This document shows positions 6,375-45,864 of a stretch of 64,000 bases of DNA, piece after piece. The notes beneath the pieces were generated by a model. That model saw only the letters and a program-made list of their open reading frames with translations, did not search any database and was not told the origin of the DNA. Position 1 is the stretch's first letter, and each line of letters begins with the position of its first letter. The stretch is from Candidatus Saccharimonadota bacterium (GTDB taxonomy: Bacteria; Patescibacteriota; Saccharimonadia; Saccharimonadales; Saccharimonadaceae): contig JAFRJK010000008.1 of NCBI GenBank assembly GCA_017432305.1, positions 78,866-142,865 of the forward strand, written 5' to 3'. A program made the translations under genes and the position numbers.

Positions 6375-6399
6375 AACTTGCCGAAGGCAAGTTATTTTA
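6375..6399 (+). terminator. Intrinsic terminator (possibly bidirectional)
   Basis: AACTTGCC-gaa-GGCAAGTT followed by ATTTTA. Confidence 0.7.
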
Positions 6400-6915
6400 C
6401 CTTCTATTTCGAATATAATCTAGCCCCTTATTATATCTATTTTCTCTTATCCAATCCGGCTTTTTATTCCCGCCTTTTCTTTCTTTTCCACTTCCGTTTT
6501 CCTTATTATTATATCCGCGAGTCTTAAATCCTTTTGTTTTATTACATCTCGAACAAGTTAGAACGAGATTTTTTGTTGCATTCGTTCCGCCGTAAAAAAG
6601 TGGCACAACATGATCGACATGAGTATAAGGTGTATTAAGCCCAATCAGTCTTTTACACCAAGCACATCTTTTCTTTTGGCAAATCCACTGCTCTCTCTTC
6701 CATTTTTTAAATCGCTCTGATTTTTTTAGTTCCTCAAACTCGTACCGTAATCTCCACCACCGCTCATATCGTGCCTTATTTTCCGCCTTAAAATCTCGAT
6801 ATGGTTTTCTTTCCCATTCTTTTTTTCGTTTCTGCCACTTTAAGAAACTAATTTTACTCATCACCGCGACAAGAAATAATATTACCACAAGAATAAAACA
6901 ACCCACCACTTCCAT
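6397..6915 (-). CDS. HNH endonuclease with an N-terminal transmembrane helix
   Basis: HVDHVVPLFYGGTNATKNLVLTCSRCNKTKG is an HNH motif. Cys pairs CQKKRCAWC are present. The N-terminus VVGCFILVVILFLVAVM is hydrophobic. Confidence 0.75.
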   Translation of the reverse strand: MEVVGCFILVVILFLVAVMSKISFLKWQKRKKEWERKPYRDFKAENKARYERWWRLRYEFEELKKSERFKKWKREQWICQKKRCAWCKRLIGLNTPYTHVDHVVPLFYGGTNATKNLVLTCSRCNKTKGFKTRGYNNKENGSGKERKGGNKKPDWIRENRYNKGLDYIRNRR

Positions 6916-6987: not shown

Positions 6988-7383
6988 ATGAAAAAGAAAT
7001 CTGGTTTTACTATTATTGAACTTGCTGTTGTGATTGTGTTTGCAACACTTCTTGTTGTTTTATTCTTCATTCAAAAAGCGAACACTGAAGCTATGCACCG
7101 TGATGAACAAAGAAAAGAAGCGATAAATGCTATGTATTACGCTCTTGAAGAAGGATTTTTTATCGAAAATGGTTATTATCCAGAAGAAATTTCTGAGGAG
7201 AACTTAAAGGTGATGGACCCACAACTCTTCACCGATCCTTATGGGATTAATCTTGGAAAAGACGGTAGCACCTATTCCTATGAACCAGCAAATTGTGATA
7301 ATGGAAAATGTAAAGAATACACTCTCCGCGCAAAGCTTGAAAAAGAAGATGAATACGTTAAGAAAAATCGCGAGACAAAATAA
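6988..7383 (+). CDS. Type IV pilin / pseudopilin (prepilin-type N-terminal methylation motif)
   Basis: KKSG/FTIIELAVVIVFATLLVV is the classical G|FT(L/I)IE cleavage-methylation signal. AGGAG lies upstream. Confidence 0.75.
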   Translation: MKKKSGFTIIELAVVIVFATLLVVLFFIQKANTEAMHRDEQRKEAINAMYYALEEGFFIENGYYPEEISEENLKVMDPQLFTDPYGINLGKDGSTYSYEPANCDNGKCKEYTLRAKLEKEDEYVKKNRETK

Positions 7384-9257: not shown

Positions 9258-9467
9258 TTGGATTTTTGGAGGGGTGGGAGATATTCTCGTAGTGATGGCC
9301 AAATTGCCATGCGGATAGTGGACGGTAACAAATGGGAGAATAAGGCTTTTAGCTCCACTAACGCTTGGAATACACATATGAACCATGCAGCTGGTGGCAC
9401 TGCATCGGTATGGGTTGAAACGAATAATTTTAGAGGAGACGGGTATTTCATCCGTTGCGCAACGGAT
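9258..9467 (+). repeat. FWRGG-IRC cassette E1
   Basis: Head TTGGATTTTTGGAGGGGTGGG at 9258-9278. Tail ATCCGTTGCGCAACGGAT at 9450-9467, shared with E2. Reads LDFWRGGRYSRSDGQIAMRIVDGNKWENKAFSSTNAWNTHMNHAAGGTASVWVETNNFRGDGYFIRCATD. Begins at TTG, not ATG, and has no SD. Confidence 0.85.
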
Positions 9468-9662
9468 AGGAAACCCGAACCCCCGATAATCTGACCAGCC
9501 ATGGTGCACAAAGGTAGTGCTGCCACCAGTATGCAGACCTAGATTAGCGTCAGCTGCACGATCGGACCCAGTAGCACGGTTATACCAAATTCGCCCCCAA
9601 GTAGTACGTACATGTACTTGACCGTAAGAATAATAATATTCCCCACCCCTCCAAAAATCCAA
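9450..9662 (-). repeat. FWRGG-IRC cassette E2
   Basis: Head rc at 9642-9662. Reads LDFWRGGEYYYSYGQVHVRTTWGRIWYNRATGSDRAADANLGLHTGGSTTFVHHGWSDYRGFGFPIRCATD. Converges on E1 and shares its tail palindrome. Confidence 0.85.
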
Positions 9663-9666
9663 CGGA

Positions 9667-9868
9667 TACGCAACGGATATTATTCCCATTACCACGATAA
9701 GGAATACCTTCTACCCAGATGTTAGTAGTAGTGCCATCAAAGCCAGTAGATAGATTAGAGCCATGTGTTGCACTATAAGCGAGATAAGCCCACCAATACC
9801 CAATCTCTATGCGAGCAAAAGCACCACCACTAGTCCGATAATAATACCCACCCCTCCAAAAATCCAAG
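9667..9868 (-). repeat. FWRGG-IRC cassette E3 (tandem with E2)
   Basis: Head rc at 9848-9868. Tail ATCCGTTGCGTA (rc of 9667-9678) abuts the TCCGTTGG lead-in of E2. Reads LDFWRGGYYYRTSGGAFARIEIGYWWAYLAYSATHGSNLSTGFDGTTTNIWVEGIPYRGNGNNIRCVS. An in-frame ATG at 9930 sits behind GAGGAG (9935-9940). Confidence 0.85.
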
Positions 9869-10003: not shown

Positions 10004-10450
10004 CTAATTTGGAGGGGCGCACTTTTTTCTAGGTTTTCCTCGATAATTTGGGTTCATCGGGTATTCTCGCACTTTATCGACGATGTTATAAAAAATCTTT
10101 TCGGAAACAAGTCCGATCGGCTCATTTAAGCGTTTCGCTGAGTAGCGTTCGATTTGATTTAATAACGCATAAGTAGTTTCTCCGTCAACAATCACTTCCT
10201 CGGTCCAATTTTCATTCCTCTGTCTAGTCCTCGTAAAAGGAATGCCATAAAATAAGTGACCATTTATCTTACTAAAAACAAGCACTGGCCGGCGGAAAAG
10301 CTCGCCCTTCCCATCTTGCTCCGAGCCAATATTCACTCCGACCGAACACCACCAAATCTCTCCGTTATGAAACATAAATTCATACTCGCCTGCATTTAAC
10401 TTTTTCTTTATCCGATTCCATCCATCAAAATCTTTCTGATAATTTTCCAT
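10004..10450 (-). CDS. PemK/MazF-family toxin-like protein
   Basis: 148 aa. DFDGWNRIKKKL...GEIWWCSVGVNIGSEQDGKGELFRRPVLVFSK matches the long MazF/PemK subfamily (from memory). No recognisable antitoxin is adjacent. Confidence 0.6.
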   Translation of the reverse strand: MENYQKDFDGWNRIKKKLNAGEYEFMFHNGEIWWCSVGVNIGSEQDGKGELFRRPVLVFSKINGHLFYGIPFTRTRQRNENWTEEVIVDGETTYALLNQIERYSAKRLNEPIGLVSEKIFYNIVDKVREYPMNPNYRGKPRKKCAPPN

Positions 10451-10472: not shown

Positions 10473-10678
10473 CCCAACGGATGATCCATCCAAGACCTCT
10501 CGGGCTATCGGCACTACCCGGGTATACCGTGGTCGAATTATATTGGTTGCCGGCATATATGCTTAGATAATTGCTCCTGTCACTATGGGTTGAACGGCGA
10601 GTTTGCCAGCGACCATGGGTCACACGATAATAGATAGCCCCAGACGTTTCATAATTCCCACCCCTCCAAAAATCCATT
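10473..10678 (-). repeat. FWRGG-IRC cassette E4 (degenerate tail; the only copy starting with ATG)
   Basis: Head rc at 10658-10678 reads ATGGATTTTTGGAGGGGTGGG. Reads MDFWRGGNYETSGAIYYRVTHGRWQTRRSTHSDRSNYLSIYAGNQYNSTTVYPGSADSPRGLGWIIRWV. Tail is ATCCGTTGGGTG. Confidence 0.8.
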
Positions 10679-10692
10679 CAGAGCAATATTAC

Positions 10693-11844
10693 TTAGAAAT
10701 AATACTCGTCCTCAATCGGCTCGTTAATTGCGCGTTTGATTAAGTCATATCTAAACCCCTGCCGAAGCAGATGTTGAATCAGTTTTCTATCGTCGTAACC
10801 TCTTCGACGTTTTTTTGCAATCACTTTTTTAATTTCAATTTCATCATCTCGGGCTTTCTCGCCGTTTTCATCCTCGCCCATCACCTCTTTAATAATATCT
10901 TCTGAGACACCTTTAACCCTAAGTTCGAGCCAAAGTTTTTTCTCCGACGTTCCTTTAATCCGGTTTCTATTTTCGACAAAATATTTTGCAAACGCCTCAT
11001 CATCAATCACTTTCATATCGATTAGTTTTGCAATTACTGCATCGATATCTTCATCTTTAATTGGTGCTGCTGGCTTTCTTGGCAAATTTGTTCTTGCGAA
11101 ACCACGATATTCAAAGCGGTTATCCGCATATTCTGAATCACGATCCACTCCAGTTGATTTTGCAAAACTATCCGTCCCTAAATCCTTATTTGAATCTGGG
11201 TTTTTCTTTCGTCTTTGCTCACGTTTCTCTTTTAGCTGTTCGTTCTTATCATGCACTTTTTGTCTAATTTCGCGAACCTCTTGGCGATATTCCTCGTCAT
11301 TCTCCAGTCGTTTTAAGAAGTCGTCATACCTTTGTTGTTCAATTTTACGTTTAAATTGTTTTCGACGAAGATAATTCCGAATTTCTCTCTCGGAATGTGG
11401 GCGCGTAAAAGCATACTCAAGTGTTCTTTGAAAAAGTTTTCCAAAATCGGATGCCGATTGAAACTCATTAATTTGTTCTCTTGTATAGACTTTCCCAACT
11501 CGGATTCCAAAATCAGACACCTGATTGATCGTTAAGGAAAAAGCAAATCTCCCACCAAGGAAAACATTAACGCGGTTTTTATCCTTTACTCCCGGACGAA
11601 GATCAGTGACTTCACGTGGGTTCATTCTCCCTCTTGGTCTTTTCGGAAATTTTAGCCCAGCGGTTTTGTCAATAAAATCATCTTCAAAATCCTCAAAATC
11701 ATCCACCTCATCATTATCATCCCCCTCATCTTCGAACTTGCCGAGTTTTTTATCTCGGAGATTTATAATTTCCACCAATTTTCTCCAAATAAATTTTTGA
11801 TAATTCCATGGCAGTTTTCGCAACCCGTAACGGCTCTTTTGCAT
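10693..11844 (-). CDS. recX: RecX-like regulatory protein (unusually long, 383 aa)
   Basis: Lies downstream of recA. Contains RecX-type helical repeats (FTRPHSEREIRNYLRRKQ; LELRVKGVSEDIIKEVM; RRGYDDRKLIQHLLRQGFRYDLIKRAI). The predicted start overlaps the NUDIX gene by 95 nt, so the true start is uncertain. Confidence 0.55.
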   Translation of the reverse strand: MQKSRYGLRKLPWNYQKFIWRKLVEIINLRDKKLGKFEDEGDDNDEVDDFEDFEDDFIDKTAGLKFPKRPRGRMNPREVTDLRPGVKDKNRVNVFLGGRFAFSLTINQVSDFGIRVGKVYTREQINEFQSASDFGKLFQRTLEYAFTRPHSEREIRNYLRRKQFKRKIEQQRYDDFLKRLENDEEYRQEVREIRQKVHDKNEQLKEKREQRRKKNPDSNKDLGTDSFAKSTGVDRDSEYADNRFEYRGFARTNLPRKPAAPIKDEDIDAVIAKLIDMKVIDDEAFAKYFVENRNRIKGTSEKKLWLELRVKGVSEDIIKEVMGEDENGEKARDDEIEIKKVIAKKRRRGYDDRKLIQHLLRQGFRYDLIKRAINEPIEDEYYF

Positions 11845-27404: not shown

Positions 27405-27418
27405 CCCCAAAAATCCTA
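27405..27418 (-). repeat. Truncated cassette head remnant
   Basis: The rc reads TAGGATTTTTGGGG and is preceded by conserved spacer S1. The body is missing and tRNA-Thr lies 45 nt further on. Confidence 0.6.
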
Positions 27419-27465
27419 CAGAGCAATATTAGCTGTCTTTAATATTAAAGTTTAATTTTACTCCG
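27419..27465. repeat. Head-to-head junction spacer S1 (47 nt, AT-rich)
   Basis: Reverse complement of S2 (29050-29096) with one mismatch. Confidence 0.85.
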
Positions 27466-27674
27466 TTGGATTTTTGGAGGGGTGGGCAATATGATCGAAG
27501 CTCCGGTAAAGTCGGTGCTCGCCTTTCTCACTTTTGGTCATTTACGCGTTTTTACACATATAGCGAGCTTGGTCGAATATCAATTGTTGCTACTTGGATT
27601 GAAAACAGTACTGGTCTAATTACTTTTGGCACAATGTATGGCGGACATGGAGGTCGTATCCGTTGCGCACGGAT
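27466..27674 (+). repeat. FWRGG-IRC cassette E5
   Basis: Head at 27466-27486. Reads LDFWRGGQYDRSSGKVGARLSHFWSFTRFYTYSELGRISIVATWIENSTGLITFGTMYGGHGGRIRCARI. The 17-nt tail ATCCGTTGCGCACGGAT is shared with E6. Confidence 0.85.
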
Positions 27675-27863
27675 AGAAATCCCACGACCTTTATATTCAG
27701 AAGTACCAGCTACTATATAGCCAGCATTATTTACGATTGACAGTATGAGTAGTTCGCCTCTCTCAGTAATATAGTCCCTATAGATCTGATAATACCCGCC
27801 AATTGCACGGTTATTAACTCCACCCCACGAACGAGTATAGTCCCCACCCCTCCAAAAATCCAA
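27658..27863 (-). repeat. FWRGG-IRC cassette E6
   Basis: Head rc at 27843-27863. Reads LDFWRGGDYTRSWGGVNNRAIGGYYQIYRDYITERGELLILSIVNNAGYIVAGTSEYKGRGISIRAQRI. The Cys is lost through the 1-nt-short palindrome. Confidence 0.85.
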
Positions 27864-28814: not shown

Positions 28815-28860
28815 TTGGATGTTTGGTAGGCATGGCAGTCGCATCCGTTGCACAACGGAG
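28815..28860 (+). repeat. Collapsed cassette Ec (degenerate head fused to tail)
   Basis: TTGGATGTTTGGTAGGCATGG (head-like) plus 7 nt plus ATCCGTTGCACAACGGAG (tail shared with E7). The interior is deleted. Confidence 0.6.
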
Positions 28861-29049
28861 AGGACCGCCATAACCTCGATAATAATAACTCGTAACCCAA
28901 ACACTAGCAAAGCTAGAAGTAACATCTGCGTACAAGCGGGAACTATATTCGGCGTTTATAGCTCGGCGCGACCACCACTGGAAATATCTCCCGCGATTAC
29001 AAACATTCCCGCTAACAGGACAATACAACCCACCCCTCCAAAAATCCAA
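28843..29049 (-). repeat. FWRGG-IRC cassette E7
   Basis: Head rc at 29029-29049. Reads LDFWRGGLYCPVSGNVCNRGRYFQWWSRRAINAEYSSRLYADVTSSFASVWVTSYYYRGYGGPLRCATD. Confidence 0.85.
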
Positions 29050-29096
29050 CGGAGTAAAATTAAACTTTAATATTAAAGAAAGCTAATATTGCTCTG
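29050..29096. repeat. Head-to-head junction spacer S2
   Basis: CGGAGTAAAATTAAACTTTAATATTAAAGAAAGCTAATATTGCTCTG. It is the inverted copy of S1 and is homologous to S3 and S4. Confidence 0.85.
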
Positions 29097-29303
29097 TAGT
29101 ATTTTTAGAGGGGTGGGTATTATGCACGGTCTAGCGGTAGCGTTACTAGTCGCGCCCGTAATAGTTATGGGTGGACTAATAGAGCAGGTAGTGCTACTTC
29201 TTCGTTCGGCCTAATCATGCATCCGCATAATGATCAAGGATTTATAGAATCATCTGCCAATTTCAACCGTGGCCATGGATGGTTTCTCCGTTGCGCAACG
29301 GAT
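29097..29303 (+). repeat. FWRGG-IRC cassette E8 (two TAG stops in the head)
   Basis: Head is TAGTATTTTTAGAGGGGTGGG. The remainder is open: RGGYYARSSGSVTSRARNSYGWTNRAGSATSSFGLIMHPHNDQGFIESSANFNRGHGWFLRCATD. Confidence 0.85.
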
Positions 29304-29492
29304 AGAATTCCCCCACGCTCTTTTGTTATTAGCTTGAGGCCAAACATAGGGGTCATCATCATTTATACCAGTGTCTAAAAGATTATGATGAGTACTTGCT
29401 GTAGCCGTACGGTACGTCATATATCCTCCAGTTGTGCGACCTCGAGGTCTGCCATAGCTACTACTATAACCCCCACCCCTCCAAAAATCCAA
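29286..29492 (-). repeat. FWRGG-IRC cassette E9
   Basis: Head rc at 29472-29492. Reads LDFWRGGGYSSSYGRPRGRTTGGYMTYRTATASTHHNLLDTGINDDDPYVWPQANNKRAWGNSIRCATE. Shares its tail with E8. Confidence 0.85.
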
Positions 29493-29648
29493 CGGAGCAA
29501 GAAGCTGATAAAAAGTAAGTTTACTTACTTTTTAGAAGCGACGCAGGTCCGTCTATAGCGAAGCTAGACGGAGCAAGAAGCTGTCTAAAGCTAAGTTAGA
29601 CGAGGCACTTTTAGACATAACGAGAAAAATATTGTATAATAAACATTA

Positions 29649-31517
29649 ATGAATACCGAAAAAATCCGAAATTTTTGTATTATTGCACATATTGACCACG
29701 GCAAGTCCACTCTTGCCGATCGGATGATGGAAATTACAAACACTGTCGAAAAACGTGAGATGAAGTCCCAGCTCCTGGACAGTATGGAGCTCGAACGCGA
29801 AAAGGGAATTACAATTAAACTCGCTCCAGTTCAAATGGATTATAAAGGCTACGAGCTAAATCTTATTGATACTCCGGGCCATGTTGATTTCTCTTATGAA
29901 GTTTCACGTAGCCTCCAAGCCGTTGAATCCGCAATTCTTGTTGTCGATGCGACACAAGGTATTCAGGCCCAAACTCTCGCAAACGTTTACCTTGCGCTCG
30001 AACAAGATTTAACAATCATCCCAGTGATAAACAAAATCGATCTCCCGGCCGCAAATGTTGAAAAAGTCACAAATGAAATTGTCAATCTCCTCGGCTGTAA
30101 ACCCGAAGAAATCATCCCAGTCTCCGCCAAAACCGGCCTAAACGTCGAAAAAGTACTAGACGCAATTATAGAACGCGGATCATCACCAAGTTTTTGGGAG
30201 TTGCCGGACGCAGCTAAGGAGGCTGAGGAGTCGAGCCCTGTGGAGACAGGCGCGAGGACTCCGTCTCCAGAAAACTTGCGTGATGAACGCGCTAAAACTC
30301 GTGCTCTAATCTTCGATTCTTATTTTGATGACTATCGCGGTGTGGTCCTTTATGTCCGCATCGTGAATGGGAAAATTGAAAAGAACGCAAACATTCACAT
30401 GATGGAAAACCGTACTAATGGCATCGCGCTTGAAGTTGGCGTTTTAAAACCAAAAATGGTTCCGAAGGATGAACTAAAAGAAGGTGAAGTTGGTTATATC
30501 GTTACAAACCTAAAAACTACTCGTGAAGCAAAAGTTGGTGATACAGTAACATTACAAAAACAGCCCGCGACCACTCCACTCCCAGGTTATAAAAACGTTT
30601 TGCCATTTGTTTATGCTGGCTTTTTCCCAGTGTCGAATGATCAATATAAGGACTTAAAAGAAGCAGTTGAAAAACTCGCACTTTCCGATTCAGCCCTGCG
30701 TTTTGAGCCAGAAAATTCACCAGTTCTAGGCTTTGGACTTCGTATTGGTTTCCTTGGGCTTCTTCATATGGATATTATCCGCGAGCGCCTAGAGCGTGAA
30801 TTTGATCTCGATCTCGTCGTGACTAATCCGTCGACAAATTATGAAGTGAAATTAAATAACGGTGAAGAAATCGAAATAAAATCTGCGGCTGATTTGCCGG
30901 ACATGAGTGAAGTTCTAGAAATTCGTGAACCGTGGGTAAAAGGCGAAATTATCCTTCCAGTTTCAATGATTGGGAACGTCCTAAATCTTATAGTTGAAAA
31001 ACGCGGACTTCATAAAGATATTTCGTATATGGAAGATCGCGCACTAATTAATTTCGAAGCCCCAATGGCAAATCTCTTAACCGATTTTTATGACCAATTA
31101 AAATCTCTAACTTCCGGTTATGCATCGTTTAATTATGAAATTTCGGATTATAGGACTGAAGACTTAGTCCGTGTTGATTTTCTTGTCGGCGGAAATAAAA
31201 TCGACGCTTTAGCGATTATGTGCCACCGTTCAGAATCCGACGCCATTGGCCGCGACATCACGAAAAAATTAAAACAAGTCATTCCACGTCAAAATTATGA
31301 AGTTGCACTCCAAGCTGCAATTGGCGCCCGTATTATCGCTCGCGAAACGATTGGCGCATATCGAAAAGATGTGACCGTGAAAATCCATACTGGTGACCGT
31401 GATCGTAAAGCAAAACTTCTCGAAAAACAAAAACGCGGTAAAGCTAGAATGAAACGCTTCGGAAAAATTGACATCCCATCAGAGGCCTTCACCGTTATGT
31501 TAAAACGAGACGACTAA
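29649..31517 (+). CDS. lepA: Elongation factor 4 (LepA), with a ~25-aa GC-rich insertion
   Basis: IIAHIDHGKST, DTPGHVDF and NKID GTPase motifs and a LepA C-terminal domain. The insertion lies at about 30177-30299. Confidence 0.95.
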   Translation: MNTEKIRNFCIIAHIDHGKSTLADRMMEITNTVEKREMKSQLLDSMELEREKGITIKLAPVQMDYKGYELNLIDTPGHVDFSYEVSRSLQAVESAILVVDATQGIQAQTLANVYLALEQDLTIIPVINKIDLPAANVEKVTNEIVNLLGCKPEEIIPVSAKTGLNVEKVLDAIIERGSSPSFWELPDAAKEAEESSPVETGARTPSPENLRDERAKTRALIFDSYFDDYRGVVLYVRIVNGKIEKNANIHMMENRTNGIALEVGVLKPKMVPKDELKEGEVGYIVTNLKTTREAKVGDTVTLQKQPATTPLPGYKNVLPFVYAGFFPVSNDQYKDLKEAVEKLALSDSALRFEPENSPVLGFGLRIGFLGLLHMDIIRERLEREFDLDLVVTNPSTNYEVKLNNGEEIEIKSAADLPDMSEVLEIREPWVKGEIILPVSMIGNVLNLIVEKRGLHKDISYMEDRALINFEAPMANLLTDFYDQLKSLTSGYASFNYEISDYRTEDLVRVDFLVGGNKIDALAIMCHRSESDAIGRDITKKLKQVIPRQNYEVALQAAIGARIIARETIGAYRKDVTVKIHTGDRDRKAKLLEKQKRGKARMKRFGKIDIPSEAFTVMLKRDD

Positions 31518-31541: not shown

Positions 31542-31748
31542 TTGGATTTTTGGAGGGGTGGGAGATATAAATACAATTCCGGCATAATAGAAAGCCGCCT
31601 CGGACTTAGTGAGTGGTGGGAATTAGTTGCATATTCAGATAACGGCGGGTATTATTTTGATACTTACGATGGCCCCGAAACGTCGTCAGTATGGACTCCG
31701 GGAAGATATAGAAGAGGCCTAGGGCTATTTCTCCGTTGCACAACGGAG
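31542..31748 (+). repeat. FWRGG-IRC cassette E10 (solo)
   Basis: Head at 31542-31562. Reads LDFWRGGRYKYNSGIIESRLGLSEWWELVAYSDNGGYYFDTYDGPETSSVWTPGRYRRGLGLFLRCTTE. Tail is CTCCGTTGCACAACGGAG. Confidence 0.85.
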
Positions 31749-32549: not shown

Positions 32550-33008
32550 ATGGAATTAAAACCGAAAAAATCAGTTAAAGAAAGTGCTGAAGTTGCAAAA
32601 CTCGAAGCCGAAAAAACCGAACTCTTAAACGATCTGCAAAGAACTCGGGCTGATTTTGAGAACTTCCGAAAACAAGTCGATCTCCAAAAGTCTCAAGCGA
32701 AAAAACTCGCCGAAGATTCGACGGTTATGAAGATTTTACCGTTAATCGACGATATGTCGCGCGCAATTTCTGCAAATCCGGAAGCTCTTTCTCCAATTTC
32801 AAAAACGTTAGAAAAAACAATGAGTGAACTTGGACTTTCTAAAATCGAGACATCCTCCGGAACTGATTTTAATCCAGATCTTCACGATGCCATTTCGATG
32901 GAAGAAAGTGATGGCGAAAAAGAAGTTATCGCCGAAGAACTCCGCCCGGGATATCTTTATAATGGTGAAGTCCTCCGCCCAGCCATGGTGCGTGTGAAAC
33001 GGATTTAA
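32550..33008 (+). CDS. grpE: Nucleotide exchange factor GrpE
   Basis: RTRADFENFRKQ motif and C-terminal beta domain ...GYLYNGEVLRPAMVRV. AAGGAG lies before the ATG at 32550. Confidence 0.9.
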   Translation: MELKPKKSVKESAEVAKLEAEKTELLNDLQRTRADFENFRKQVDLQKSQAKKLAEDSTVMKILPLIDDMSRAISANPEALSPISKTLEKTMSELGLSKIETSSGTDFNPDLHDAISMEESDGEKEVIAEELRPGYLYNGEVLRPAMVRVKRI

Positions 33009-33209
33009 TACGCAACGGATATTCATCCCAAATCCCCTATTGTTTCCACCTGAGTTCCAAATACTAGCTTTACCACCGCTAGCAATAGTATTCATATGGG
33101 AACCTTGATAATTAGTGGTTGCATTATTGCCCCACCAAACGCCTGCATGTATGCGCCCGAAAATATTCGCAGAGCCATAAGCTTGACTCCCACCCCTCCA
33201 AAAATCCAA
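33009..33209 (-). repeat. FWRGG-IRC cassette E11
   Basis: Head rc at 33189-33209. Reads LDFWRGGSQAYGSANIFGRIHAGVWWGNNATTNYQGSHMNTIASGGKASIWNSGGNNRGFGMNIRCV. The tail starts on the base after the grpE stop. Confidence 0.85.
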
Positions 33210-33251
33210 TCGGAACAATATTACTATAATACTAAAACTAATTATGCTCTG
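33210..33251. repeat. Head-to-head junction spacer S3
   Basis: TCGGAACAATATTACTATAATACTAAAACTAATTATGCTCTG. It contains a TATAAT. Confidence 0.8.
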
Positions 33252-33466
33252 TAGTATTTTTGGAGGGGTGGGTATTACGATCGCGAAGGTGTTGGTCGCA
33301 TTTCAAATCGCATTTCCTATAGCGCCTTTCTAACAAATTACCAATTTGAAGTTGGGCCGAACAATGGCGCCGCTCTCGTTTCTCGAATTGGTGATGGAAC
33401 TACCGTAACGTGGGTGCCAGGGATTTCTAACAAGGCGTTTGGGTTTTCTATCCGTACGCAACGGAT
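33252..33466 (+). repeat. FWRGG-IRC cassette E12 (TAG at the first head codon)
   Basis: Head is TAGTATTTTTGGAGGGGTGGG. Reads YFWRGGYYDREGVGRISNRISYSAFLTNYQFEVGPNNGAALVSRIGDGTTVTWVPGISNKAFGFSIRTQR. Confidence 0.85.
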
Positions 33467-33652
33467 AGCAATTCCATAACTTCTGTTGCTAGTAGAATAA
33501 AAGAAATGAGCAGTGCCGTTCGTATCATATTTCGAGTTTAGATAGTATGCCGTTGTAGCTCCAGCAGCAACTTTCATCCATGACCTACCGCCTTCAAGTC
33601 GTCCCACAACAGCACCATTAACACCATACTGACCACCCCTCCAAAAATCCAA
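33450..33652 (-). repeat. FWRGG-IRC cassette E13
   Basis: Head rc at 33632-33652. Reads LDFWRGGQYGVNGAVVGRLEGGRSWMKVAAGATTAYYLNSKYDTNGTAHFFYSTSNRSYGIAIRCVRI. Confidence 0.85.
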
Positions 33653-33697
33653 TCGGAACAATATTACTATAATATTAAAAGAACTAATTATGCTCTA
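33653..33697. repeat. Head-to-head junction spacer S4
   Basis: TCGGAACAATATTACTATAATATTAAAAGAACTAATTATGCTCTA. About 90% identical to S3 by eye. Confidence 0.8.
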
Positions 33698-33897
33698 TTA
33701 GATTTTTGGAGGGGTGGGTACTATACTAGGTCATTTGGCGCTGCTAGTAGCCGTAACGCGAGTGGATTTTGGTGGGCGGGTTATGCTCTTGGTGGATCTA
33801 GCCGTGTACTAAATACTGGCATCACCGATGGGGGATATACTGGACCGCAAAGTGAATACCATGCTGGTGGAGGACTCTATATCCGTGCGCAACGGAT
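33698..33897 (+). repeat. FWRGG-IRC cassette E14 (TTA at the first codon)
   Basis: Reads LDFWRGGYYTRSFGAASSRNASGFWWAGYALGGSSRVLNTGITDGGYTGPQSEYHAGGGLYIRAQR. There is no start codon in frame. Confidence 0.85.
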
Positions 33898-34089
33898 GAA
33901 GAACCCCCAGGTCCTGCGGTTGTTTGCCGGCACATAAACACTAACTTTTGAACCTTCGTTTTGAATATCAGAAGCTAGATACCAAGCTTTTTCTTCCGAA
34001 CCAGCAACACTAGTCCACCAGTTCCCCCATGTTGTACGGTCACGGATAATGATATTAGACCAATAAGTCCCACCCCTCCAAAAATCCAA
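33881..34089 (-). repeat. FWRGG-IRC cassette E15
   Basis: Head rc at 34069-34089. Reads LDFWRGGTYWSNIIIRDRTTWGNWWTSVAGSEEKAWYLASDIQNEGSKVSVYVPANNRRTWGFFIRCARI. Confidence 0.85.
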
Positions 34090-34744: not shown

Positions 34745-35761
34745 ATGTACGGGTCCGGTTTTTCAAAAGAAAAGATAAAAAAGAAAATTCGTGCTGCGAA
34801 CTATATTACCGTTGCACAGATTTTCCTAAAAGACAATTTTTTACTAGATCGCCAGCTTATTAGCGATGATATCAAGCCGAGGTTACTCGGCCACTGGGGA
34901 ACTTGTCCTGGTGTGAATATCGCTTATAACTGTTTAAAATCCTACTTTGATGATGAGAACTTTTCATTTATTTTAGGACCTGGCCACGGTTTTCCTGCAC
35001 TTCAGGCTAACTTATTTATTGAAGGTGAAATTGAAAAAGTTGATAAAAAAGCGACAAGAAATCGCTCCGGTCTTGAATATATTTGCAAAAACTTTTCCTG
35101 GCCTGGTGGTTTTCCATCCCACTGTACTCCAGTTACTCCTGGCGTAATTTGTGAAGGTGGTGAACTTGGCTACGCTTTTGCGATGGCTTACGGCTACGTT
35201 CTCGGACATCCTGAAAAAACTACTGCCGTCCTAATTGGCGATGGCGAATTTGAAACTGCAACCGCGCTCGCTTCGATGAACTTGAACAAAATGTTAAGTG
35301 GAAAAAATAATGGTAGTGTTCTTCCGATTCTTCATCTTAACGGTTATAAAATTTCCGCGCCGACGATTGCTGGGCGAAAATCTGAGAGGGAATTAAATGA
35401 ATTAGTCCGTGGCTTTGGATTCACTCCGATTCTTGTTCGTGGTGATAACGAGGATGCGGAAGCGGCGATTGACTACATCATCGATGATTTTGAAAATGCT
35501 TTGAAAGAAGCTGATGAAATCTTTAGAGCAATTAAACGTGGTGAGAAGAAAAACCCACCATTTATTATTATGAAAACCGACAAAGGCTTAACCGGCCCAG
35601 AAGAATTAAATGGCGAAAAACTCCGTGGGAACTTTAAGTCGCATCAAGTTCCTTTACCCAATGCTAAAACTGATAAAAACGAACGTGAAATCCTTGAAAA
35701 ATGGCTATCTTCATATCGCTTTATTGAACTTTTCGATGAAGAGAAAGGGTTTGTAATATAA
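34745..35761 (+). CDS. xfp: Phosphoketolase, N-terminal part (split gene)
   Basis: RLLGHWGTCPG, GPGHG, EGGELGY, GDGE and PILHLNGYKI motifs. It ends with the stop/start overlap TAATG. Confidence 0.8.
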   Translation: MYGSGFSKEKIKKKIRAANYITVAQIFLKDNFLLDRQLISDDIKPRLLGHWGTCPGVNIAYNCLKSYFDDENFSFILGPGHGFPALQANLFIEGEIEKVDKKATRNRSGLEYICKNFSWPGGFPSHCTPVTPGVICEGGELGYAFAMAYGYVLGHPEKTTAVLIGDGEFETATALASMNLNKMLSGKNNGSVLPILHLNGYKISAPTIAGRKSERELNELVRGFGFTPILVRGDNEDAEAAIDYIIDDFENALKEADEIFRAIKRGEKKNPPFIIMKTDKGLTGPEELNGEKLRGNFKSHQVPLPNAKTDKNEREILEKWLSSYRFIELFDEEKGFVI

Positions 35762-36945
35762 TGACTGAGAAAAAATCTACTGCAAGAACTTTTGGTGAAA
35801 TGCTAAAAAACGAGGTGAAAAATAATGAGAAATTTTATTTCTTCTCCCCGGACGAAACAACAAGTAATCGCCTCGACGCAATCTACGATGAAACGACTCG
35901 CGCTTGGTCGAATTTAAATATTGAACCACAAGATCTTCCGGAGGGTGACGGTGGACACATTATCGAGCTTCTCTCCGAGAATACACTTTTCTCGGTCATG
36001 ATTGGCCACATTATGGCTGGCGAACCGGCAATGATGGCGAGCTACGAAAGCTTCTTCACGATTATCGTTAGTCAAATTCTCCAACAACTAAAGTTCTTTG
36101 AACAAAGCGAAACTGTTAGCTTCCGTCCGGATTATCCGGCAGTAAATCTTTTAAGTACTAGCACTTGTTGGCGCCAAGATCATAACGGCTTTTCACACCA
36201 ATCTCCGATGCTTGTCTCGGCACTTCTCGAACGCCCTGGCAATAAAGTAAACTGTCTTTTCCCAGTTGATAGTGAATCTGCGAAAGAAACTTTTAAATTC
36301 ATGATGAATAGTGAAAATGTTGTAAATCTTACAACATTCAACAAAACCGAAGAGCCACAATACATTAATCCTGAACACGCTAAATACCAATTTGAAAATG
36401 GCGCGAGTGTCTTCAACCTTAATAATAAACGCGGTGAATTTGTTGACCCTGGAAAAGAAGGTCTCGGCGAAGCGGATATTGTTTTCGCGACTGCTGGTGA
36501 CATTGCAACTCGTGAAGCTATCGAAGCAATCAAATCTCTAAAAGAAGATTTTCCAAAAGCAAACTTCAGACTTATTAACATCCTTGCGCTTTCGCACGAT
36601 AAAATCGGTACAACCGAAAACCAAATGGATAAAAATACCTTTGATAAAATGTTTGGCAAAGTTGCTCCAATTATTACGAATTTCCATGGCTATGCTGACG
36701 CACTTAAAAATATCATCGGAAACTATACTGACGAAACTCGCGTGATTGCACATGGTTTTGAGGAACACGGTTCGACAACCACTCCGTTTGATATGCTTGC
36801 ACTAAACCACGCAAGTAGATACGACCTTGCGCTTGATGTTGCAAAAGAAATGCATCGCCCTGATCTTGTTGAAAAATATGAAGATCTTATCGCCCAGAAT
36901 TCCGGCCACGCCCGCGAGTTCGGCGAAGACTTGGTTGAGCTTTAG
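35761..36945 (+). CDS. xfp: Phosphoketolase, C-terminal part (split gene)
   Basis: FSPDETTSNRL and WRQDHNGFSHQSP motifs typical of the middle and C-terminal XFP domains. Confidence 0.8.
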   Translation: MTEKKSTARTFGEMLKNEVKNNEKFYFFSPDETTSNRLDAIYDETTRAWSNLNIEPQDLPEGDGGHIIELLSENTLFSVMIGHIMAGEPAMMASYESFFTIIVSQILQQLKFFEQSETVSFRPDYPAVNLLSTSTCWRQDHNGFSHQSPMLVSALLERPGNKVNCLFPVDSESAKETFKFMMNSENVVNLTTFNKTEEPQYINPEHAKYQFENGASVFNLNNKRGEFVDPGKEGLGEADIVFATAGDIATREAIEAIKSLKEDFPKANFRLINILALSHDKIGTTENQMDKNTFDKMFGKVAPIITNFHGYADALKNIIGNYTDETRVIAHGFEEHGSTTTPFDMLALNHASRYDLALDVAKEMHRPDLVEKYEDLIAQNSGHAREFGEDLVEL

Positions 36946-45150: not shown

Positions 45151-45361
45151 CTACGCAACGGATTGAAAGACCACTTCCCCGCCGGTCGCCATCTCCTGTA
45201 TTACTCATAGAAATATTAGTTGTTCCAGCGTCTTGTCCGGTTACGAGACAAGCTGCGGAGTCATTAGAAAAGGTATATTTTCCTCTGTAGCGCCCATTAG
45301 ATAAGCGCCCCCAAATACCACCCATGCTACGACCATAAGCCCCACCCCTCCAAAAATCCAA
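45151..45361 (-). repeat. FWRGG-IRC cassette E16
   Basis: Head rc at 45341-45361. Reads LDFWRGGAYGRSMGGIWGRLSNGRYRGKYTFSNDSAACLVTGQDAGTTNISMSNTGDGDRRGSGLSIRCVAE, then a stop. Confidence 0.85.
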
Positions 45362-45656: not shown

Positions 45657-45864
45657 TTGGATTTTTGGAGGGGTGGGTATTATTCTAGTTCGAACGGTGG
45701 TATTTGGGGTCGCATTATAGCAAAATTCATGCGGACGAAGGTGACCGTAGACGGCGATCGTAGTGGCGACATTAATACTGGTGTGATGAGTGGCGAGACT
45801 ACCACTTTCGTAGCTTCATCTTGGGCAGACCCTCGAGGTGCGGGGTATTTTATCCGTTGCGTAG
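45657..45864 (+). repeat. FWRGG-IRC cassette E17
   Basis: Head at 45657-45677. Reads LDFWRGGYYSSSNGGIWGRIIAKFMRTKVTVDGDRSGDINTGVMSGETTTFVASSWADPRGAGYFIRCVA, then a stop. Confidence 0.85.

Follow-up and report, generated by a model that had tools for sequence, protein, structure and literature searches.

Orphan C-terminal cassettes in a Saccharimonadota genome as probable silent donors for a retroelement-diversified surface lectin

A stretch of 64,000 nucleotides from contig JAFRJK010000008.1 of a Candidatus Saccharimonadota bacterium (the window) carries, between grpE and an adk-like gene, an array of five short units of alternating orientation at positions 33009 to 34089. The sequence leaves very little doubt that these units are orphan, 5'-truncated cassettes equivalent to the C-terminal module that serves as variable repeat (VR) in the target family of a diversity-generating retroelement (DGR). 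The orphans are probably silent donors for segmental gene conversion into the VR of an expression site, and not the parts of a local shufflon. The array is best read in this manner because a natural VR is a mosaic of two orphan cassettes.

The grpE-adjacent array and the protein module it encodes

The five units, 192 to 207 nt long, alternate in strand and enclose two AT-rich spacers, S3 and S4. Re-inspection bore out the order, orientations and coordinates of an earlier, sequence-only reading of this DNA, which had interpreted the array as an invertible shufflon. The features are as follows.

33012 to 33209, minus strand: E11, orphan cassette; TTGGAT head at 33189 to 33209; its tail, ATCCGTTGCGTA on the minus strand, reaches 33009
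33210 to 33251: S3, asymmetric AT-rich spacer inside a divergent head-spacer-head module
33252 to 33458, plus strand: E12, orphan cassette; its head, TAG TAT, has a stop and no start; interior open
33448 to 33468: palindromic tail common to E12 and E13, TATCCGTACGCAACGGATA; DNA hairpin of −7.3 kcal/mol
33458 to 33652, minus strand: E13, orphan cassette; TTGGAT head with one mismatch at the last G; IRCVRI tail
33653 to 33697: S4, second copy of the spacer module; TATAAT on the plus strand
33698 to 33889, plus strand: E14, orphan cassette; head TTA GAT, without start codon; interior open
33880 to 33898: palindromic tail common to E14 and E15, TATCCGTGCGCAACGGATG
33889 to 34089, minus strand: E15, orphan cassette; TTGGAT head at 34069 to 34089, 39 nt before the adk-like gene (34129)

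The grpE stop codon occupies 33006 to 33008 and homology to the E11 tail begins directly after it, at 33009, so that the array does start on the first base behind grpE, as had been claimed. The inverted 21-nt heads said to bracket each convergent pair were likewise found, at 33252 to 33272 and 33632 to 33652 for the first pair and at 33698 to 33718 and 34069 to 34089 for the second. The head-spacer-head junctions (33633 to 33720 and 33190 to 33274), judged by eye to be direct repeats of about 90% identity, align over 89 nt at 92% identity with 3 gaps, and the interiors, described as unrelated, are pairwise 45 to 59% identical at the nucleotide level, the shuffled background being 50 ± 3%. With identity at background, inverted duplication of one cassette from another was ruled out. 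S3 contains a TAATAT on the minus strand 8 nt before the E11 TTG and a perfect TATAAT (33226 to 33231) 20 nt before the E12 head. The hexamers that had suggested bidirectional promoters in the spacers are thus present, but a two-hexamer σ70 scan of S3 and S4 returned no full promoter where 2.9 were expected. A terminator scan across the array found none.

Including the grpE-adjacent five, the window has 17 such cassettes. An 18-nt head core, GATTTTTGGAGGGGTGGG, occurs 17 times at three or fewer mismatches, compared with 0.04 occurrences expected from shuffles, and is identical at all 18 positions in 14 of the 17 cassettes. Read along its own strand, each unit begins with TTGGATTTTTGGAGGGGTGGG or a sequence close to it; the invariant 21- to 27-nt head is GCTCCG TTGGATTTTTGGAGGGGTGGG. 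The head is constant even at synonymous sites, suggesting a constraint at the DNA level. Behind it every cassette holds an open frame of 64 to 69 codons, with internal stops in none of the 17 interiors, that reads L-D-F-W-R-G-G ... R ... W ... G-x-x-I-R-C; the R, G and R columns are invariant and F, W and Y nearly so.

Cassette peptides alone (six tested) gave no meaningful Pfam or NCBIfam match. A homologue search with one cassette returned only itself and a profile of all 17 returned 9 proteins; the same profile, run against 1.8 billion representative proteins, gave 149 matches, mostly open reading frames (ORFs) of 60 to 140 aa starting at the motif. The motif also forms the extreme C-terminus of three long proteins, P0006 (564 aa), P0023 (572 aa) and P0060 (605 aa), P0006 ending in ...ICPKGWQLP...NGAPLDFWRGG...GFYIRCVARQ. 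Each cassette equates to the C-terminal ~66 residues (LDFWRGG…G..IRC) of a FISUMP lectin-type domain, together with the few codons (A/T-P/L-L) standing ahead of DFWRGG in the complete gene. Residues 408 to 563 of P0006 and of its variant P0270 align with positions 38 to 186 of the FISUMP profile (PF09603, TIGR02145). The PF09603 scores are 38.1 bits for P0270 and 27.3 bits for P0006 (cut-off 33.9), the TIGR02145 scores for the two are 41.2 to 41.4 bits, just under the cut-off of 41.65, and many P0006 homologs carry PF09603. On the strength of this alignment, a cassette would make up about the final third of a C-type-lectin-like FISUMP domain. The proposal that the units encode alternative C-terminal ends is thereby upheld, with the protein in question of FISUMP type.

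One member of the P0006 cluster is annotated as Candidatus Saccharibacteria bacterium, and the nearest named relatives are ruminant and mouse gut metagenome-assembled genomes (MAGs) and Candidatus Nanosyncoccus. A Foldseek search of the Protein Data Bank (PDB) with the full-length AlphaFold model of P0006 (predicted local distance difference test, pLDDT, 87) found no match at E ≤ 0.001. Weak matches (E about 4e-3, probability 0.97 to 0.99) of its N-terminal β-sandwich, residues about 55 to 200, were to Ig folds of pilins and adhesins (CsuE, CfaB and the FimH pilin domain) and gave no information on the cassette region; such likeness of the modelled N-terminal domain to pilus subunits and tip adhesins hints at a fimbria-like adhesin.

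The P0006 gene lies on a 110-kb contig, L006, from the same sample series as contigs bearing the window sequence. Directly downstream of it are a 331-aa ORF without family match and a 375-aa reverse transcriptase (RT; RVT_1), and an opposite-strand repeat of 268 nt is 90% identical to the 3' end of the gene. Between TTTGGAGGGGTGGG and ATCCGTTG, all differences between this template repeat (TR) and the gene fall on TR adenines (AAC to TTC, CAC, TAC, GGC etc.). The next 20 nt differ at non-adenine sites, the gene reading ATCCGTTGCGTAGCGCGCCAG, the initiation of mutagenic homing site (IMH), and the TR ATTCGTTGTGTGGCGAGGCAG (IMH*); a GCGCCA-GTAG-TGGCGC hairpin follows the IMH. TR, VR, the distinction of IMH from IMH* and the hairpin are reportedly the defining features of DGRs. 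The locus reads as a canonical DGR with the last ~66 codons of the P0006 gene as its VR (VR1), and the head of the window cassettes matches the 5' boundary of that VR, their tail (ATCCGTTGCG...) the first bases of its IMH.

Natural variation agrees with this assignment (here and below, the comparisons rest on consensus metagenome assemblies). Twelve natural P0006 variants from different samples are invariant through residue 501, except for the near-invariant S294 and N491, and vary only after DFWRGG; variation in the family is confined to the last 63 residues, and most variants differ only at template-adenine codons. A second VR, VR2, follows rplU at 534 to 824 of L006 and of a related contig, L068; it has 60 nt of target-gene homology before the head, a full IMH and an 81-nt GC-rich 3' element, and no N-terminal ORF. 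Over 11.5 kb, L006 and L068 differ at 24 positions, all of them in VR2 and all at TR-adenine sites. By these substitution patterns the DGR is evidently active in nature, and since VR2 lacks an N-terminal ORF yet varies at adenine sites, the DGR would diversify even a VR that is apparently not expressed. A third copy of the 81-nt element, 98% identical to that behind VR1, lies directly downstream of the RT gene (L006 13938 to 14018, minus strand), where just the closing ~20 nt of a VR (…TATCCGTTGCGTAGCGCGCCAGTAG) precede it; it may represent a cut-down VR or belong to the template RNA.

The window cassettes differ from these VRs in several respects. They are 47 to 57% identical to the only TR found, which is the background level and rules them out as VRs of this TR. 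Of the IMH they share only the first 9 to 14 nt (ATCCGTTGCGTAGC), and the GC hairpin and 81-nt element that flank TR, VR1 and VR2 are absent from them. Orphans carry the target-gene sequence GCTCCGTTGGAT, which the TR lacks. The window contains no N-terminal target part nor, among the ORFs scanned, an RT; the features of a DGR VR are those of VR1 and VR2 on L006 and L068.

A two-donor mosaic at the expression site

Within the P0006 cluster of 13 members, the interiors of three (P0270, P0273 and P0269) cannot derive from the TR. Five contigs, the longest of 203 kb, bear P0270. One of them, L068, is 99.8 to 99.99% identical to L006 from position 1 up to the end of the head at 11503 and again from the tail onward, and the TR is identical in the two. 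Nucleotides 11504 to 11676, between head and tail, are unrelated to L006. The 3' 138 nt of this interior are identical to an orphan cassette of P0040 type on contig L071, including all 31 adenines; the identity stops in the tail after ATTCGTTGCGTAG, beyond which each sequence runs into its own flank. At its start the P0270 interior has 19 residues (SYRRSEGAIKLRDNHGFWW) identical to those of a different orphan ORF, P0088, which reads out of a spacer whose translation equals that of window S4. A second assembly, L069, has this mosaic as well.

As its 5' segment is of P0088 type and its 3' segment that of the P0040-type orphan on L071, the expressed VR of P0270 is, as read from these identities, a mosaic of two donors with the switch between them at the conserved WW codons. 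Crossing over within a cassette, so that an internal mosaic replacement results, indicates gene conversion and not inversion. The retention of every adenine over 138 nt argues for recombination at the DNA level over DGR reverse transcription, and RT-mediated transfer into the L068 VR was rejected on this ground. The flank of the orphan on L071 is 99% identical to window positions 29472 to 29570, a unique sequence by which this orphan can be assigned to a strain of the window's species. A strain of greater divergence, L073 (89% identity to L071), likewise has a P0040-type orphan; its presence in two diverged strains makes transfer from orphan to VR the more parsimonious direction.

The P0273 cassette is identical to the orphan ORF P0029. 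In L069, the IMH region (7199 to 7214) reads ATCCGTTGTGTGGCGAGGCAG, a TR-type IMH* that is synonymous with the sequence in L068 and might make the VR refractory to DGR homing, locking the cassette. On the 3-kb contig that carries P0273, L072 (JGI 3300029305), the 5' 1.5 kb of the target gene passes precisely at the head into the native locus of an orphan, and after the head follows the layout of contig L074: the cassette, rpsJ on the opposite strand and another head. This junction could be a reciprocal, inversion-type rearrangement at the head or an assembly chimera at the ~29-nt repeat; in the former case, inversions between heads would occur, if rarely.

The mechanism that we propose is a homologous, RecA-type, segmental gene conversion of DNA that would copy cassette interiors, entire or in part, into the VR of the expression site. 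Crossovers would fall in the head (21 to 27 nt), in the tail (10 to 14 nt) or in short internal stretches such as TGGTGG, which encodes WW. The orphans would in this manner supply new lectin scaffolds, and because head and IMH are left intact, the DGR could later overwrite or fine-tune the new VR. We infer the role of E11 to E15 themselves as donors, and equally the recombination enzymes; recA, recX, ruvA and ruvB are among the housekeeping genes of the window.

Cassettes, selection and turnover across the window

The remaining twelve cassettes are distributed over the window as follows.

9258 to 9458, plus strand: E1, convergent pair with E2
9459 to 9662, minus strand: E2, convergent with E1 and in tandem with E3
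9670 to 9867, minus strand: E3; the E2 head lies 7 nt after the E3 tail
10474 to 10677, minus strand: E4, single cassette; ATG head; IRW tail
27466 to 27863: E5 (plus strand) and E6 (minus strand), convergent pair adjoining tRNA-Thr
28852 to 29492: E7 (minus), E8 (plus) and E9 (minus); E7/E8 divergent, E8/E9 convergent; E8 head TAG TAT TTT TAG
31542 to 31739, plus strand: E10, single cassette between lepA and hrcA, with its own tail palindrome
45155 to 45361, minus strand: E16, divergent to E17 around tRNA-His and tRNA-Gly; VR-type tail ATCCGTTGCGTAGC
45657 to 45860, plus strand: E17, divergent to E16 around the same tRNA genes; VR-type tail ATCCGTTGCGTAGC

TTG or ATG stands at the head in 14 of the 17 cassettes, and E8, E12 and E14 have no start codon at all. 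At divergent junctions one head reads TTGGAT and the other is start-less (TAGTAT in E8 and E12, TTAGAT in E14), an asymmetry also seen in related strains. Convergent pairs meet on a hairpin-forming palindrome, ATCCGTTGCGCAACGGAT, both strands of which encode IRCATD; it is 18 nt long, or 17 nt at E12/E13 and E14/E15. Stop codons lie 0 to 3 codons upstream of all 17 heads. No constant 5' gene part reads into the array, and the FISUMP N-terminal motif is absent from every frame of the window. An isolated tail remnant (…GRHGSRIRCTTE) is found at 28834 to 28854 on the plus strand, opposite E7 and right after a thioredoxin-reductase-like gene, and a truncated B-side head, ctgtagGATTTTT, at about 27407 to 27425, upstream of E5 and beside tRNA-Thr. 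The exact 21-nt head had no match in the GTDB species genomes, and the 18-nt head had 60 matches in JGI metagenome contigs, none of which proved on inspection to be a cassette (no open frame or tail).

A second lineage of orphan ORFs (…PLNFLRTGYY…AVRCVVREG), related to P0060, comprises P0020, P0024, P0036, P0044, P0045, P0047, P0061 and P0063. By their sequences these short ORFs look like adenine-site variants of one template, and orphan VR copies seem common in other Saccharibacteria.

The strain comparisons include signs of selection on the encoded peptide. Between E12 and its L073 ortholog, 8 changes in the cassette frame are synonymous and 2 non-synonymous, giving proportions of synonymous (pS) and non-synonymous (pN) change of 0.186 and 0.015; four of the five other frames have no synonymous bias and one antisense frame is similar (8 synonymous to 1 non-synonymous). 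The L073 ortholog has a TTGGAT head where window E12 starts with TAG. With pS far above pN in a start-less cassette, the coding capacity of a sequence that cannot be translated in place is under purifying selection.

The surroundings of the cassettes have changed more freely. L073 contains E12, E13 and S4 in the same order and orientation, with different cassettes on either side, and the polarity of the spacer module relative to E12 is reversed (TTGGAT faces E12 in L073, TAGTAT in the window). Beside the E9 flank, L071 has three extra cassettes. The E2 ortholog on contig L070 differs in two clusters, codons 7 to 21 and 57 to 68, in which multi-nucleotide and synonymous changes are mixed, and its partner cassette has been replaced; E3 of a related strain (P0003) has head mutations. 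Homology between strains breaks at the heads, and the arrays are therefore dynamic over evolutionary time. This retains one half of the sequence-only reading, in which the conserved head was a boundary of exchange; its other half, in which segments invert on the spot as in the R64 shufflon or in Gin, Cin and Min, is not supported, for the reasons given below.

Outside the cassettes, a Pfam search of the gene-like window ORFs of at least 110 aa and of the neighbours on contig L001 found no tyrosine or serine recombinase and no RT. An Rfam scan of the whole window returned five tRNAs only. A TATAAT ending ~8 nt before the start codon, with no Shine-Dalgarno sequence, precedes the genes at 29649, 31799, 34745, 40641, 42770, 26091 and 27893, suggesting that leaderless transcripts are widespread in this genome. 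In every assembly the phosphoketolase is encoded by two abutting ORFs, 34745 to 35761 (XFP_N, 338 aa) and 35761 to 36945 (XFP and XFP_C, 394 aa); the gene is split or frameshifted. An HNH endonuclease ORF (6397 to 6915, minus strand) lies beside tRNA-Met, and a PemK/MazF-like toxin ORF (10004 to 10450, minus strand) between cassettes E3 and E4.

Alternative explanations and comparison with known systems

Several observations weigh against silent donation. The grpE-adk array is colinear and 99.9 to 100% identical in six assemblies from five samples, and no exchange involving E11 to E15 themselves was observed in the assemblies compared. Few orphans lie within 10 kb of related targets in other species: among 80 loci of related targets in named Saccharibacteria and Nanosyncoccus MAGs, orphan-like matches number 0 to 2 per locus and are probably TRs. 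The homology arms, 21 to 27 nt and 10 to 14 nt, are short for RecA-type recombination, and the asymmetric spacers, with their TATAAT and one-sided start codon, are unexplained by a pure silent-donor model. That transfer runs from orphan to VR is inferred from the distribution of the P0040-type orphan, and the assignment of window contig and DGR contig to a single genome follows, short of proof, from the shared sample series, shared heads and linking contigs.

In an unlikely but more far-reaching version, heads, tails and spacers would make up a system dedicated to switching scaffolds and linked to the DGR. Cassettes of VR size, forming a library across the whole genome, would trade places with the expression-site VR, perhaps also with TR and VR2, in a programmed manner at the 21-nt head, by site-specific or by transcription- or cDNA-assisted means in place of generic RecA recombination, and the spacer modules would be invertible or directional switches choosing the transcribed or recombination-competent neighbour. 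If true, receptor diversification in an ultra-small episymbiont would be two-tiered, combinatorial and mutagenic.

Alternatively the cassettes might be non-functional debris, decaying duplicates of target 3' ends or ectopic DGR integrations kept by chance. Damaged copies do exist (E8 with two head stops, E4 with IRW, the tail remnant and the truncated head described above), as do the head mutations of E3 in the related strain, and the cassettes lack the IMH hairpin and 81-nt element. Decay is nevertheless hard to reconcile with head cores that are identical in 14 of 17 cassettes while the interiors are at random identity, with the lack of internal stops, with the excess of pS over pN in E12, with the recurrence of orphan sequences in the expressed gene and with the devotion of ~5% of a streamlined genome window to cassettes. 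We regard this explanation as quite improbable.

It is quite improbable, too, that the array is a shufflon-like system in which a recombinase acting on the inverted 21-nt heads flips segments or spacers into an expressed configuration. The geometry invites this explanation, since exact inverted-repeat heads bracket both convergent pairs and both spacers. Breakpoints in strain comparisons fall at heads, the spacer polarity relative to E12 is opposite in L073, L072 joins the target 5' part at the head to the orphan locus of L074, and S4 and the E15 head are points where short contigs end. Contigs ending at these two places are also what 89-nt repeats would lead one to expect, and L072 may be a chimera. 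Neither the scanned window ORFs nor the 10 kb around the expression gene on L006 contain a tyrosine or serine recombinase. The array has no adjoining constant gene part; the gene that uses such ends is on a different contig and is a DGR target, and sites so dispersed would need inversions of 100 kb or more. Alternative orientations, which the sequence-only reading led one to expect, did not appear: order and orientation were identical in all six of the consensus assemblies mentioned, in which a minority at low frequency could go unseen. Inversion, finally, cannot yield an internal mosaic replacement with the crossover inside a cassette.

Just as improbable is the view that the cassettes are independent small genes, in which proteins of ~68 aa would be made from the head TTG on leaderless mRNAs started from the spacer −10 boxes. 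A start codon in 14 of 17 heads, frames open throughout, the TATAAT ~8 nt before the starts of many genes (E11 and E13 have a TAATAT at that distance), the synonymous bias of E12 and the prediction of several cassettes as ORFs by gene callers are all in keeping with such genes. TTG, though, is a poor leaderless start codon, and a Shine-Dalgarno-like motif precedes only 1 of the 17 cassettes, compared with 11 of 19 genes. The start-less E8, E12 and E14 stay open nonetheless, E12 under purifying selection; several cassettes abut terminators or another cassette's tail without any promoter; and the head is conserved at synonymous sites. The peptide by itself would amount to a FISUMP domain's final third, with an invariant Cys and strands from a fold whose remainder is absent.

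Although the cassettes share the head with the TR (TTTGGAGGGGTGGG), the spacer TATAAT boxes point into start-less E12 and E14 in a manner resembling a non-coding TR, and the true orphan VR2 is diversified at adenine sites, it is highly improbable that the RT copies them through RNA as additional TRs or distant VRs, given their ~50% identity to the TR, their lack of IMH, hairpin and 81-nt element, the GCTCCGTTGGAT that they carry and the TR does not, and the 31 of 31 adenines kept over 138 nt in L068, a retention that adenine-mutagenic reverse transcription would not allow.

DGRs are generally taken to vary a scaffold that is itself fixed, and to do so at template-adenine positions alone, and silent-cassette gene conversion is known mainly from immune-evading pathogens. 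Under silent donation, the tip of a Saccharibacteria surface lectin, hypermutated by a DGR, would also be rebuilt from dispersed orphans that differ in framework and loop length, and the binding repertoire would extend well beyond that of the DGR alone. Donation would explain why ~5% of a streamlined Candidate Phyla Radiation (CPR) genome window is spent on apparent gene fragments, and would offer a handle on how episymbionts adapt their attachment to hosts. DGR surveys based on TR-VR matching, like gene callers, will miss or mis-annotate such cassettes. Our literature search for DGRs combined with silent-cassette conversion or with orphan VRs found no precedent; Roux et al. 2021 note only the possibility that domains are fused to C-lectin ends by intragenic recombination.

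The R64 shufflon (Rci/sfx), the Gin/Cin/Min systems and Mycoplasma pulmonis vsa/HvsR resemble the present case in offering alternative C-terminal ends of a surface or adhesin protein, with a short conserved sequence at the 5' edge of each cassette, both orientations and convergent pairs. Unlike them, the array has no recombinase gene that we could find, no adjacent constant segment and no observed alternative orientation, and the exchange seen here is non-reciprocal and segmental.

The L006 locus, for its part, is like the DGRs of BPP-1 (Mtd), Treponema denticola, Legionella and CPR clade 2 in its RT, its TR, its C-terminal VR in a lectin-like fold and its adenine-specific differences; the likeness includes IMH and IMH*, a GC hairpin with a 4-nt loop and a second, orphan VR that is diversified. 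Unlike DGR VRs, the window cassettes match no TR, have neither IMH nor hairpin and stand apart from any target gene. The DGR mechanism does not include the exchange of a VR interior for DNA from outside the TR, after which VR and TR no longer match, and no description of such an exchange was found in the literature searched.

The closest parallels are pilE/pilS of Neisseria and vlsE/vls of Borrelia, in which, as here, one expressed gene with an invariant part is accompanied by many promoter-less, 5'-truncated copies. The 17-bp repeats of vlsE are comparable to the head and tail as short conserved bounds of a variable cassette. In both systems expression-site variants are multi-donor mosaics, as is P0270, and recA, ruvA and ruvB genes are present here. 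In contrast with pilS and vls, which occupy one or few dedicated loci, the donors here are dispersed singly or in small alternating clusters between genes of the core genome, and outside head and tail they are at random nucleotide identity to one another and to the expression site, whereas vls cassettes are ~90% identical to the expression site. The host is a CPR epibiont from ruminant-gut-type samples with no known immune-evasion context, again unlike Neisseria and Borrelia. Most distinctively, the module is here also the VR of a DGR; judged from these sequences, two known modes of diversification appear to act on one protein module, a combination for which the search gave no earlier example.

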